In this document: positions 19,401 through 37,400 of the stretch, piece after piece
Layout: each line of letters starts with the position of its first letter
How positions within the stretch are numbered: position 1 is the stretch's first letter
Assembly: GCF_036507355.1 (NCBI RefSeq)
Contig: NZ_AP027877.1
Source: Escherichia coli
Lineage (GTDB): Bacteria > Pseudomonadota > Gammaproteobacteria > Enterobacterales > Enterobacteriaceae
Strand: one strand, 5' to 3'
DNA: 64,000 nt
Made by a program: the position numbers

Positions 19401-22400
19401 GGCAGCGGCTTGATTTTCATCTGCCGGGTAGCCTTCCATCTCTGGGGTGATGAACAAACGATATCCGCTGTAATCCGCTTTTCTTACCATCGTTACGGTC
19501 AACATGGCTGCGCCAGAGAGACGGGAGAGAACATAGGTGCCATTGGTTGTGGCGACATTTTCTACCGCAAAGAACGGCGCGAAGGAGCTGCCTTTACGAC
19601 CATAATCCTGATCGGGAGCAAACCATACCGCTTCACCTTTCTTCAGTGCACCGACAATGCCGCGCAGATTATTTCTGCCGATCATCGCTTTGTTAGAGCG
19701 CATGCGACCACGGGTCTGCACCCATTCCATCAGCTGATTATTATGTGGACGATAGGTGGCCATCATTGGCTGACAAAGTCCCATCACGCGGCCGCCCAAT
19801 TCCAGCGACATAAAATGGACGCCGACAACCATTACGCCGCGATTTTGCATTTGTGCGTGTTTAAGGTTATCCAACCCTTCAACATCAAACCATTTACGTA
19901 CGCGACTGTCGGGCCAGAACCATGCCATGCCGGTTTCTACCAGCGCCATGCCGAGTGAACGAAAGTTTTCGGCAATCATCTTCTCGCGCTCTTCAGCAGA
20001 ATGCTGCGGGAAACAAAGTTCCAGGTTTTTACGGGCGATAGATTCACGACGTTTCAGGAATGGTCGCGCCATTGTGCCGATACGCGTGCCGAGAAAGCAG
20101 AGAACAGGATAAGGAAGCTGTACCCAAAGCCAGAGTACACCAAGCCCAAACCATGTGAGCCAGTAGCGAGGATGCAGAAACTCGCGGGAAAATTTGCATT
20201 GTGGAAACATAGTTACCTTCTGTAGATACGAATTGTTGTATCGCAGAAGATTCCATGTCGACAGCGGTACACTCAATTGATTAGGCCATCATGTACGACA
20301 ATGGTTCCTGTAAAGAGTGTAAAGACTAGTCAGGACATAACCACGAGGAGCATGAATGCGGTATCTGTACTTTATCACTCGCTGACTGCTTTCAGCTACT
20401 GATTATTAATCGTGCAAAGTAAATATTTTTCCGTACACAACAGTCTTGCATTTAACATGCTGTTTTCATTGATGCTTAGCAAAAATTGCCAGAGGGTAAG
20501 GATTGTCTTACTATTAAAGTGACTGAAGTTACAGGTTTTTTAGCGCGGCAGGAGGTTGAGCTATGATTTATTTATGGATGTTTCTCGCCCTGTGTATTGT
20601 CTGCGTAAGCGGATACATCGGTCAGGTACTGAACGTGGTATCGGCGGTCTCTTCTTTCTTCGGCATGGTGATCCTCGCTGCACTCATTTATTACTTCACC
20701 ATGTGGTTAACTGGCGGTAATGAACTGGTGACGGGGATATTTATGTTTCTTGCCCCGGCTTGTGGCTTGATGATTCGCTTTATGGTGGGGTATGGCAGGC
20801 GATAGTGGGTCAGGATGGCTCATTTGGGCAGGTGTTCACATCAGCATCAGACATGATTGTTCACCTGCCATGTGACAGACGCTATCGCACAGGATGAATA
20901 AGATAATTCGCCTTTGTCGGAAAAGGGGGCGGAATTTCTTCTGTGAGGTTTAATGGTGGCGCATCTTCTCTCATTTTTAACAAAATCGCCTGTGATGGCT
21001 GAAATTTTGTAGAGTGAGTTGTCGTCATCGCTGACGTTTTTTCCGTCTCTTTATAGCTCGCCTCACTACCACCACCAGAAATAGAAAATGCAAAAACATT
21101 GCATGCCATAATAGAGACCAATAAAAATAAGCTAAAAAGCATTAAGTTTACTTTCATAGAAAGTTATCCTGAAAATGGTTCACTGAAAACCTACGATGTT
21201 ATGGCTGTATTTACATTTAATTAATCAGTATTTACATCGATATAATAAATGACATCTCTTTGTGGTATATAAGAATAGTTCTCTGTGACAGGAAGCATAT
21301 TCCTACAATTGTAAGACTAAAATACTTCTTGCGATAATAACTACAACTGTAAGATAACCCTTTCAAAATGACCGTTGCTCTCTGATTTCTCATTTCATGC
21401 TCACCCAATATGATGGCGGCGTTTTCTAAAACTGTTAAAGAATGAGGTAAGTATGAAACGTTTAATTATGGCTACGATGGTCACAGCAATTCTGGCATCT
21501 TCAACTGTATGGGCTGCTGATAATGCACCGGTAGCGGCACAACAGCAAACTCAGCAAGTTCAGCAAACCCAGAAAACGGCAGCAGCAGAGCGTATCTCTG
21601 AACAAGGTTTATATGCGATGCGTGACGTGCAGGTAGCGCGCCTGGCTCTGTTTCATGGCGATCCGGAAAAGGCAAAAGAACTGACCAATGAAGCTTCCGC
21701 TTTGTTGTCAGATGACAGTACCGAATGGGCAAAGTTCGCTAAGCCAGGTAAAAAGACCAATCTCAATGATGACCAATATATTGTCATTAATGCATCTGTC
21801 GGAATTTCTGAGAGTTATGTAGCAACACCCGAAAAAGAAGCCGCGATAAAAATTGCCAATGAAAAAATGGCGAAAGGGGATAAAAAGGGCGCAATGGAAG
21901 AGCTTCGCCTGGCCGGTGTTGGTGTAATGGAAAACCAATATCTGATGCCGCTTAAACAGACTCGTAATGCACTTGCTGATGCGCAGAAACTGCTTGATAA
22001 AAAGCAATACTACGAGGCAAACCTGGCGCTTAAAGGTGCGGAAGATGGAATCATCGTCGATAGCGAAGCACTGTTTGTGAACTAATGCTGACAGGCAGTA
22101 TATTGAGGTAAAGGATTTAACTCCCTCCAGCCGACAATTTTTTATGACCACAATACGACAGGTTGTGGTCATAAAATTATTTGGCGCTAGCGGTGCTATA
22201 AACTCGCATTTTATATTCCTCAAAGTAAACCGTAATAATCCCGTGTCATCACAAATCATTTATTATGTTATATTTTATGGTACGCTTAAAAAGCGTAATC
22301 ATACCCTTACTTGTAAATCACCGGCGCTTCTTACAGTTGTAAGAATAACATCACAAATGTCGCGACTCTCTCTGATTACCACGAACCAATATTTATCATA

Positions 22401-34400: not shown

Positions 34401-37400
34401 TAGTATCAGTTATTTCTCTGATCTCTTTAGTCATTTGGGAGTCGACCTCAGAGAACCCGATTCTTGATCTCAGTTTGTTTAAGTCCCGTAATTTCACCAT
34501 TGGTATTGTGAGTATCACATGCGCGTATTTATTTTACTCTGGAGCGATCGTCCTTATGCCGCAGTTATTCCAGGAAACGATGGGGTATAATGCGATATGG
34601 GCCGGACTTGCTTATGCGCCCATCGGCATCATGCCACTATTAATTTCACCTTTGATAGGACGTTATGGCAACAAAATAGACATGCGGTTGTTAGTGACAT
34701 TTAGTTTTTTGATGTATGCGGTTTGCTATTACTGGCGTTCTGTGACATTTATGCCAACGATTGATTTTACAGGTATCATTTTGCCGCAGTTTTTTCAGGG
34801 ATTCGCCGTTGCCTGTTTCTTTTTACCCTTAACAACGATTTCGTTTTCAGGCTTGCCAGATAATAAATTTGCCAATGCCTCGAGTATGAGTAATTTTTTT
34901 CGTACCTTGTCAGGATCAGTTGGTACATCGTTGACAATGACGCTGTGGGGGCGACGCGAATCGTTACACCATAGTCAGTTGACAGCAACCATCGATCAAT
35001 TTAACCCTGTATTTAATTCATCGTCACAAATTATGGATAAATACTATGGTTCGCTTTCAGGAGTTCTTAATGAAATTAATAATGAAATAACCCAGCAGTC
35101 ACTTTCTATTTCTGCAAATGAGATTTTCCGTATGGCGGCTATTGCTTTTATCTTACTTACGGTTTTGGTTTGGTTTGCGAAACCGCCGTTTACAGCGAAA
35201 GGCGTTGGGTGATGGTAAAAGCAGGGGGTTATAGCGGGTAAGACCGGGGATCTTAAGTCTGCGCCATCGGCAGCATCGCTCACCCAGGGAAAGGATGGCG
35301 ATGCTGCGTTGAAATGTTATTAACGGCCTTTTGCCAGATATTGATTCATCTCTTCTTCCGGCACCATTCCACCTCCCGTCGCCCACACCAGATGAGTGGC
35401 ATTACGCAGTTGTTCTGCGCTGAAACCGTGCATCAGTTGGTAACTTACTGATGCACACACGCGCTGAGGTCCGGCCATACCCGCCAGTGCCGAAGGTTCA
35501 AGACGAATACCTTCTTCCTGCGCCAACCCAAGAATTACAGTGCGGTTAGATGGCGGAAAGCCGGTCAAGAGTGTTTGGGGAGGTGGGGAAGGCGGTGATT
35601 CTGCATTTGCTCCACAACCAATACAATTTATAAAGACCTTGGCTAAGCATAAAAAAGCTATTTTTGGGTTTGAACCTTATGGATCAACTATGCAAGTAGT
35701 TGAGTTTGACTTGTCTGAGATTGATAAGGTTGTGGAAAAAATTTCACAGTCTTGCAATTGGAAATAACAAAAAAATCTCATATGAACCCAGTTGGCTCTG
35801 GGTTTTTTATTTCTGTTGTCTATAATGTATTCATAATTTTTACTGGGATACAGTGCACATAAAATCCCAATTGCGGTAGGACGATAACTGGATCAGGTGG
35901 AGGCACTTACGCAAGAATTGATAGTATTAATTTGCATAGAGCAACGCGAAGTTATTTATAAATTAACTGATATAGAGTACTAGATGTAATCCGAACCGGT
36001 TATGATTCGTCACCAATTTTGCAAGAGGCTGGGTAGGTAAGCTATTGGATACCGTAGGTAGCAAAAATATAGAAGGAGGGGAAGAATTGCTAAACTCGAG
36101 CATTCACTTAAATCTGAGTTATTTATTGTTAAGATATAATACACTTTGAATAATAGAGGCTATATGACAACGAAAATAAGCAAAGATGATAAACATCTGC
36201 TTGATCCTTATTTAAAATGGCTTGCAAACAAGAAGCTAATGGTTGCCTTCTGGTTGGTGCTAATGATATGTGGTTGCATATATGCATATATAGAAAATGA
36301 TTGGTCACTTCTTCCCCGATTCGGATGTTTAGGCATAATGATTGGCACATTGCTTACTCTTTCTCCGCTTTTTGCAGAAGGTATCTACCTATCAAGGCGA
36401 GAAGCATGAATCGCCACGGATAATCTAGACACTTCCGAGCCGTTGATAATACTGGTTTTCATATTCTGTCGGTGACATCTGATCGCTGGAACCATGCCGA
36501 CGCTTACTGTTATAAAACATTTCGATGTAATCAAAAATATCGCTGCGGGCTTCTTCCCGCGTTCCGTAGATCTTTTTCTTTATCCGTTCGCGTTTCAACA
36601 ACTGGAAAAAGCTTTCTGCAACCGCATTATCATGGCAGTTACCGCGACGGCTCATGCTGCCATCCAGGCCGTGTGATTTCAGGAACGACTGCCACTCATG
36701 GCTTGTGTACTGACTGCCCTGATCCGAATGAACCAGCACCTGTTTTTGGGGATTACGGCGCCATACAGCCATCAGCAGTGCGTTCAGGACAATGTCCTTT
36801 GTCATCCGGGATTGCATGGACCAGCCGATAATTTTGCGTGAGAACAGATCAACAACCACGGCAAGATACAGCCAGCCTTCGTGGGTCCTGATGTAGGTTA
36901 TGTCCGTTACCCAACGCTTATCCGGAGCATCCGGATTGAACTGTCGCTGGAGCCTGTTGGGCGACACGATACTGGCCTCGCCTTTACGTGCCCGCGGGCT
37001 CCGGTATCCGACCTGAGCCTTTATCCCGACACGTTTCATCAGTCGCCAGACTCTGTTCACTCCGCACTGTTGCCCGCTGTCCCGCAGATCCAGATGGATT
37101 TTGCGATAACCATAGACGCATCCCGATTCCAGCCAGAACTGTTTAATCTGCCCTGTCAGCCTCAGGTCTGCCTGATGGCGTTGTGAATGCGGCTGCTGAA
37201 GCCAGGCGTAAAAACCACTGGGATGAACATCCAGCACCCGACAGAGCAGGCGAACAGGCCAGCAACAGGTGTTGTCACGGATAAAGGCGTACCTCAGTCG
37301 GACAGCTTTGCGAAGTACGCCGCGGCTTTTTTTAATATGTCCCGTTCGTCGGTAACCCGCTTCAGCTCTTTCTGGAGACGGCGGATCTCGGCCTGAGCAT

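Follow-up and report, generated by a model that had tools for sequence, protein, structure and literature searches.

The AT-rich evgAS acid-response block of Escherichia coli and its counterparts in other Enterobacterales

The EvgS/EvgA two-component system of Escherichia coli activates its regulon in an acid-dependent manner (PMC5706723, PMC4283999), and EvgA activates yfdX and yfdWUVE by binding inverted repeats upstream of each (PMC3720670). BvgAS of Bordetella and KvgAS of Klebsiella pneumoniae belong to the same family, in which a hybrid kinase with tandem periplasmic solute-binding domains is paired with a NarL/GerE-type regulator (PMC5706723), but they control different regulons and showed no linkage to emrKY or to oxalate genes in the data seen. 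KvgS is distant from EvgS (43% identical), and no Bordetella protein was identified among the matches of an EvgS search. Here we analyzed the evgAS locus in a 64,000-nucleotide stretch of the E. coli contig NZ_AP027877.1 (assembly GCF_036507355.1), hereafter the window. A preliminary description of this DNA had offered the locus as known biology, and so it is: this is the textbook evgAS locus, already described in the literature as AT-rich and, in genome-wide studies, as H-NS-bound and of predicted foreign origin. The present analysis adds the limits of a transferable unit to within a few bases (21276-35212), regulator binding sites included. It also adds the occurrence of the whole block in Yersinia and other genera and, without emrKY, on a plasmid; statements that confine EvgAS to E. 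coli need updating.

We consider it likely that the AT-rich tract is the canonical evgAS locus and that its block was acquired horizontally as one piece, is now fixed in the species with a composition that has not converged on that of the host, and is bound by H-NS.

The nine-gene block in E. coli and other genera

To place the genes, annotated E. coli genes were mapped to the window with blastn (Table 1). The gene content named in the preliminary description was recovered between 20300 and 35212, where all eleven genes are intact open reading frames (ORFs). evgA and evgS form an operon of a NarL-type regulator and a hybrid kinase, 99.8% and 99.2% identical in DNA, respectively, to the annotated E. 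coli genes. The EvgS protein is 98% identical to a protein cluster (P0001) carrying SBP_bac_3, HisKA, HATPase_c and Response_reg domains, and an Hpt domain is recorded for EvgS orthologue clusters. The divergent emrKY and the adjacent yfdX and frc-oxc-yfdV-yfdE each have an 18-bp EvgA repeat upstream. In the E. coli K-12 locus evgAS-emrKY-yfdXWUVE (b2367-b2375), gene order, orientation, lengths and the four box positions are identical, and G+C is 42.7% versus 42.6% here. Only the strain-level context differs: the window has a truncated dsdA without dsdX and dsdC, then an IS3-family element (IS, insertion sequence), and at argW a different, decayed prophage in place of CPS-53. The gene order of the window is that of K-12 in reverse.

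The locus had been described as fixed in the core genome, ancient and acquired, and all three attributes were borne out. Of 5,426 complete E. coli genomes, 5,425 gave a match to the stretch 20300-35212, with 95-99% identity, and in 5,386 of them at least 80% of its length was covered. Beyond E. coli, a protein search with EvgS returned graded full-length relatives at 82, 64, 58-54 and 45-43% identity. Orthologues occur in the Yersinia frederiksenii group (82%), Winslowiella (57%, with a named orthologue in Winslowiella toletana), Klebsiella sp. RIT-PI-d (57%), Enterobacter cancerogenus (56%) and Y. rohdei (45%), in addition to the K. pneumoniae KvgS. The 82% cluster spans Y. frederiksenii, Y. 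canariae, Y. alsatica and Y. vastinensis, in which NCBI names the proteins EvgS/EvgA. A peptide-pattern scan of a genome collection, in which the EvgS patterns included generic receiver and kinase motifs, overlooked these Yersinia orthologues; among the matches listed, those outside E. coli were partial BarA-type proteins, 33-35% identical over residues 680-1071, and the scan is no evidence of absence elsewhere.

The nearest relative found, on a contig of the Y. frederiksenii group (L090) whose flanking proteins are named Yersinia, has the exact E. coli order emrY-emrK/evgA-evgS/yfdE-yfdV-oxc-frc-yfdX. Its blastn alignment with the window is one high-scoring pair (HSP) of 14,018 bp at 79.0% identity, which covers window positions 21276-35201, and homology ended at both sides. 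EvgS and EvgA are 82% and 94% identical between the two copies, and four-fold-degenerate sites of the block are 0.466 identical, roughly a synonymous divergence of 1; it is on these values that the age of the block was accepted. The Yersinia copy occupies a different chromosomal site without lpxP, dsd or argW nearby, flanked by an ars operon and tRNA-Gly(CCC) on one side and by DUF3302, RND adaptor and GGDEF genes on the other. Like the E. coli block, it is AT-rich relative to its host (41.2% G+C, against flanks of about 46-48%).

More distant versions were found in further settings. On three Rahnella-like contigs (L091-L093, 58% EvgS identity), the nine genes recur shortly downstream of smpB, the tmRNA gene and a D5-type primase gene. 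In Klebsiella variicola, a conjugative IncFIB plasmid of 378 kb (NZ_CP103421.1) carries evgA-evgS-yfdE-yfdV-oxc-frc-yfdX without emrKY, with a 55% version of EvgS, in a segment bounded by IS6 on one side and by IS5/IS3/IS1 copies on the other. The same gene order is repeated on the further contigs L102 and L103 and also occurs in L095. These non-Yersinia copies have 48-51% G+C, with a G+C at third codon positions (GC3) of 0.50-0.57 in the Rahnella-like version. The distribution is thus patchy, with flanks that differ at every locus examined, and a conserved unit of this kind in a different neighbourhood in each host argues for horizontal transfer. As a separate observation, the block adjoins hdeD-like and hdeA genes on L091-L093 and L103, and on L091-L093 also slp; in E. 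coli, hdeD, hdeA and slp are part of the separate gad/hde acid-fitness island.

The sensor-regulator pair was also seen on its own. evgA-evgS lies on the E. coli plasmid NZ_CP018207.1 and on about 20 more plasmids of the species, 57-123 kb in size; the EvgS encoded there shares about 97.5% identity with that of the window. The one plasmid inspected, pMRSN346647_113.1 (NZ_CP018207.1; conjugative, IncFIB), has the pair without emrKY or the oxalate genes, with an IS1 copy upstream, and also carries blaCTX-M-15 and qnrS1. The presence of evgA-evgS on such plasmids indicates that the pair is being mobilised at present.

The block is not uniform in composition: evgAS-emrKY has 40.8% G+C and yfdX-frc-oxc-yfdV-yfdE 45.7%. 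A mosaic, in which E. coli received the two halves in at least two acquisitions, would fit this difference of about 5 points, and likewise the lack of emrKY on the K. variicola plasmid and the E. coli plasmids on which evgAS stands alone between IS1 copies. Such a history is highly improbable given the Yersinia copy, which aligns over its whole length in one HSP with the same order and has the same G+C step (36-40% for emrY, emrK, evgA and evgS; 44-48% for yfdE, yfdV, oxc and frc), and the full order recurs in the distant Rahnella-like lineage and on L103. Collinearity over 14 kb together with the shared step largely refutes two acquisitions for the E. coli lineage and indicates that the halves were joined before E. 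coli received them.

The binding sites of the regulator form part of the same unit. The whole window was searched with TTCYTACANNTGTARGAA, the EvgA-box consensus reported by Masuda and Church (2003), allowing up to three mismatches and using 100 shuffles as the null. Four matches were obtained in 64 kb against a shuffle mean of 0.68, and none of the 100 shuffles reached four. A perfect palindrome and this enrichment support the consensus used. All four predicted boxes are intergenic and lie in promoter spacers of the cluster, which agrees with the several EvgA boxes noted earlier. Boxes are kept at the same three spacers in the K-12 and Yersinia copies, and the Rahnella-like copy has one in its emrK-evgA spacer. 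This retention indicates that the regulator and its binding sites travel together and makes the block a tidy example of a regulon that moves with its own wiring.

These observations suggest that the block is probably a mobile, self-regulating acid-response cassette of sensor, regulator, regulator sites and effectors. It would have moved among at least three Enterobacterales families (Enterobacteriaceae, Yersiniaceae and Erwiniaceae) and would still be plasmid-borne without emrKY, with the copies of E. coli and the Y. frederiksenii group representing one AT-rich sub-lineage from a donor of about 40% G+C. Roggiani et al. stated in 2017 that evgAS has no close orthologues in any other species and is absent from sister Escherichia species (PMC5706723). 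The first statement is out of date in view of the Yersinia and other full-block orthologues, and the cassette model would overturn it.

Base composition and H-NS binding

The stretch 20300-35212 has 42.5% G+C versus 51.9% in the flanking core from nupC to lpxP, and the visible contrast with neighbours such as fryA (55.7%) and alaC (54.7%), first judged by eye, holds in numbers. As a genome yardstick, we used sliding 15-kb windows (n = 2,106) over six evenly spaced 50-kb pieces of E. coli K-12 (300 kb in total). Their G+C averaged 51.0% (standard deviation 1.7%) with a minimum of 44.5% in the KpLE2/fim region, and none of the 2,106 came down to 42.5%; the sliding-window check proposed in the preliminary description therefore did not return a flat profile. 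Mean GC3 of the nine cluster genes is 0.400 (range 0.371-0.432), against 0.579 (0.495-0.643) for 19 flanking core genes, without overlap (Mann-Whitney p = 3e-5), and just 4% of long ORFs in the K-12 sample reach the cluster level. The second proposed check, the codon adaptation index (CAI) with K-12 ribosomal-protein, tufA, fusA and rpoA genes as reference set, gave a lower value in the cluster (0.363 vs 0.439, p = 0.03), but the gap is modest and the index a weak discriminator. G+C, GC3 and CAI all depart in the manner of a genomic island; the dinucleotide signature does not, and the anomaly of the block is essentially confined to G+C and GC3.

By likelihood segmentation, the low-GC domain begins at about 20190, where lpxP ends, in an abrupt step without a gradient, and it extends to about 45110, not 35212. 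Thus, the originally proposed range starts close to where the low-GC domain starts, but the tract runs well past its end, and its first ~1 kb, with yfdY and ypdI, lies outside the block shared with other genera. Past 35212, the remaining ~10 kb of the tract hold a dsdA remnant, the IS3-family element and the early/lysis region of the prophage, all unrelated to the cluster. At least four unrelated pieces make up the low-GC domain (20.2-45.1 kb), which is not to be treated as one island; this bears on the neighbouring prophage-borne AraC-like regulator.

The most AT-rich parts of the cluster are its promoter spacers, at 32.9% G+C for ypdI-yfdX, 35.5% for yfdX-frc and 33.5% for evgA-emrK (32096-32510). 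An AT content above the genome mean together with very AT-rich promoter regions is the pattern expected of H-NS-silenced (xenogeneic) DNA, and H-NS binding has been documented in other strains. Higashi et al. found evgA to be H-NS-bound in its coding region and predicted as horizontally transferred by all three methods used (PMC4720273), which adds to the case for acquisition. The emrK-evgA and oxc-frc spacers are H-NS-bound as well (PMC4720273); binding in the S2 and S3 data of that study denotes binding in at least one of K-12, SE11 and SE15, as determined by ChAP/ChIP (chromatin affinity precipitation or immunoprecipitation). Fitzgerald et al. (PMC10294691, Table 1) place a site inside evgS, at K-12 position 2,484,480, in one of the H-NS-bound regions of Kahramanoglou et al. 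As indirect evidence on derepression, evgS rises upon overexpression of T4 MotB, which alters H-NS repression (PMC7827196). Two further papers add no information on where the block came from or on the control of emrKY by H-NS (PMC12704781, PMC11504656). Silencing of the cluster by H-NS is plausible, and its binding presumably extends to the present strain. emrKY is also said, by Nishino and Yamaguchi in 2004, to be up-regulated in an hns mutant.

The AT-richness might have been made or kept locally, through selection for H-NS binding or faster AT-biased evolution of H-NS-bound DNA, rather than being a relic of a donor. H-NS-bound conserved genes and spacers do evolve faster in E. coli (PMC4720273), the G+C of the block has held at about 42.6% in the present strain as in K-12 despite its species-wide age, and the spacers, at 33-36% G+C, are its most AT-rich parts. 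However, the Yersinia copy is just as AT-rich in a host whose flanks are not, and the edge at lpxP is abrupt. A local process, which we consider unlikely as the source of the low G+C, accounts for maintenance and not for origin, and it complements an acquired composition more than it competes with it. Because the Yersinia copy is equally AT-rich in a different host, the low G+C predates the split of the two copies. The other versions of the block, at 48-51% G+C and GC3 of 0.50-0.57, show that AT-richness is not required by the encoded functions, so that the low G+C reflects the history of the E. coli/Yersinia sub-lineage. It would most simply have been inherited from a donor of about 40% G+C.

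Insertion site and origin of the block

In Atlantibacter, the order glk-ypdB-ypdA-ybiU-alaC is followed by two small genes, tRNA-Arg(CCU) and yfdC, and the gap from alaC to the tRNA gene is 1,080 bp versus about 37 kb in the window. The short gap identifies the alaC-argW content of E. coli as a tRNA-adjacent variable interval, in keeping with acquisition. LpxP had been tried as the synteny anchor and was rejected in favour of alaC: its best non-identical matches came from E. coli assemblies, including one with many frameshifts, and the Salmonella homologue is not syntenic and gave no information on an empty site. In Salmonella enterica CP191473.1 this homologue (76% identical) has ydiJ/ydiI-like genes on one side and the suf operon on the other, away from alaC; from this position, lpxP is apparently at different loci in Escherichia and Salmonella.

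The block constitutes a single self-contained unit of nine genes (21276-35212), with EvgA-binding repeats in three internal promoter regions. EvgS serves as the acid-sensing hybrid kinase and EvgA as its response regulator, and the effector operons supply the EmrKY efflux pump and YfdX with the oxalate-decarboxylation genes frc-oxc-yfdV-yfdE. An ancestor of E. coli would have taken up the block horizontally, in one piece, into the variable alaC-argW interval from a source lineage with a G+C of probably about 40%. The block would have been fixed in the species since then, its base composition not converging on the 51% of the host. H-NS, shown by others to bind in K-12, SE11 and SE15, would cover the AT-rich promoters and coding regions, and expression may depend on phospho-EvgA at the boxes under mild acid, a step taken from the literature and extended to this strain. 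The pH response of EvgS varies from strain to strain (Roggiani et al.; PMC5706723), and the acid response is therefore not to be assumed here. We infer the direction, donor and date of the transfer, and likewise H-NS control in this strain.

The alternative is vertical descent, in which the cluster is ancestral to Enterobacterales, became AT-rich through weak expression, relaxed codon selection or constraints on membrane and sensor proteins, and is patchy through many losses. CAI of the cluster genes is indeed low (0.24-0.48), as in rarely expressed genes, and several results weigh against horizontal acquisition. The G+C-normalised dinucleotide signature of the block is not an outlier (delta* 38, vs 27 +/- 12 for 14-kb K-12 pieces). 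The synonymous identity of the Yersinia block is not clearly above that of the few vertical controls, a lysS fragment (0.644; n = 59, codon-biased) and smpB, ratA and rnfH (~0.40; n = 155); lying within their range, the divergence alone neither proves nor dates a transfer, nor gives its direction. Gene mapping of 21276-35212 yielded no mobility genes, and a repeat search at the block ends yielded no direct repeats, its one match being a 12-bp inverted pair with its left arm inside ypdI, outside the block. With no integrase, transposase or direct repeat belonging to the block, the mechanism of insertion is not visible. The Atlantibacter gap shows variability of the whole interval, not a clean empty site specific to the 14-kb block. 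Finally, the absence from sister Escherichia rests on the 2017 paper (PMC5706723) whose companion claim fails here.

Against vertical descent, core genes of the flank with equally low CAI keep a high GC3 (yfeO, CAI 0.29 and GC3 0.54; yfdY, 0.30 and 0.605), and the GC3 of orthologous blocks elsewhere shows that function does not force AT-richness. The chromosomal neighbourhood differs in every genus examined, one copy without emrKY sits on an IS-flanked plasmid segment, and only 1.1 kb separates alaC from the tRNA gene in Atlantibacter. Taken together, these findings make vertical descent very unlikely and favour acquisition of the block as one piece.

With classical tRNA-associated islands, the block shares atypical composition, patchy distribution, a tRNA-adjacent variable interval and adaptive, presumably H-NS-controlled cargo. 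It differs from the classical integrase-bearing ones in having no integrase, direct repeats or mobility genes and in being species-universal rather than strain-specific. The association of a tRNA or tmRNA gene with an integrase and direct repeats is not present in E. coli: in the window, 20.6 kb separate argW from emrY, and intS is part of the prophage between them. Elsewhere the block does lie near such a gene, the tmRNA gene on L091 and tRNA-Gly on L090. The block thus behaves like an old, anchored genomic islet, with the composition and distribution of an island but without its integrase and repeat hallmarks.

Feature map and neighbouring elements

The first flank of the window has the order IS4, nupC, mntH, ypeC, yfeO, glk, fryBC, ypdFE, fryA, ypdCBA, alaC, ypdK, lpxP. 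It is followed by yfdY, ypdI, yfdX, frc, oxc, yfdV, yfdE, evgS, evgA, emrK and emrY, which ends at 35212. Beyond emrY lie the last 209 nt of dsdA, the IS3-family element and an internally deleted prophage ending in intS and argW, and after argW come yfdC, mlaA, a hypothetical gene and fadL. An Rfam scan of the window returned argW only, with no known RNA in 20300-35212.

Table 1. Coordinates of the evgAS block, its predicted EvgA boxes and flanking features in the window.
Feature	Coordinates	Strand	Remarks
AT-rich region of the preliminary description	20300..35212	.	42.5% G+C
Shared transferable block, yfdX promoter through emrY	21276..35212	.	42.6% G+C
EvgA box (predicted), upstream of yfdX	21300..21317	+	1 mismatch; counterpart in K-12 and Yersinia
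Second, weaker EvgA-box match, upstream of yfdX	21338..21355	+	3 mismatches
EvgA box (predicted) TTCTTACAGTTGTAAGAA, upstream of frc	22328..22345	+	Perfect match, perfect palindrome
EvgA box (predicted), divergent evgA-emrK promoter region	32320..32337	+	2 mismatches
yfdX	21453..22085	+	99.5% to annotated yfdX; G+C 45.8%, GC3 0.40
frc (yfdW), formyl-CoA transferase	22596..23846	+	
oxc (yfdU), oxalyl-CoA decarboxylase	23900..25594	+	
yfdV, transporter	25664..26608	+	
yfdE, acetyl-CoA:oxalate CoA-transferase	26682..27827	+	blastn; PMC3720670
evgS, hybrid sensor kinase	27883..31476	-	41.0% G+C, GC3 0.38
evgA, response regulator	31481..32095	-	40.0% G+C
emrK, efflux-pump periplasmic adaptor	32511..33674	+	
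emrY, major facilitator superfamily (MFS) efflux permease	33674..35212	+	CAI 0.24, window minimum
alaC	17560-18798		54.7% G+C
lpxP	19290-20210		
yfdY (DUF2545)	20563..20805	+	Within the AT-rich region first described, outside shared block; core-like, GC3 0.605
ypdI	20882..21157	-	AT-rich, GC3 0.36; outside block common to other genera
tRNA-Arg(CCU) argW	55780..55854	-	Integration hot spot; far end of inserted interval starting after alaC (18798)

Between emrY and the prophage (window 35213-38221), the dsdA remnant occupies 35320-35528, and dsdX and dsdC are missing. The IS3-family element, of 1.23 kb at about 36403-37636, is 99.8% identical to copies in many E. coli. Some 870 bp at 35529-36402 and a 145-aa ORF at 37599-38036 were uncovered by the five best E. 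coli matches listed.

The prophage at argW (38222-55618, with intS at 54461-55618) is internally deleted. At a join near 50135, the first 216 nt of a capsid gene abut the last 448 nt of a tail-sheath gene, and a second join at about 51102-51114 connects a tail-assembly gene to ymfQ. At least 80% of this stretch was matched in 1 of the 5,426 genomes.

Three further AT spikes were seen in the window. The first (42001-43000, 31.5% G+C) corresponds to a prophage helix-turn-helix (HTH)/AraC-like gene at 42273-43004, and the second (53151-54350, 31.2%) to an acyltransferase gene at 53196-54317 adjoining intS. The third (57881-59890, 35.0%) falls on the hypothetical gene between mlaA and fadL (58093-59373), whose counterpart in another E. 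coli shares only 88% identity with it and shows an indel. At the opposite end of the window, an intact IS4 copy (236-1564, 99.85% identical) lies directly beside nupC. This copy, the IS3-family element and the dsdA truncation suggest a somewhat IS-rich strain.

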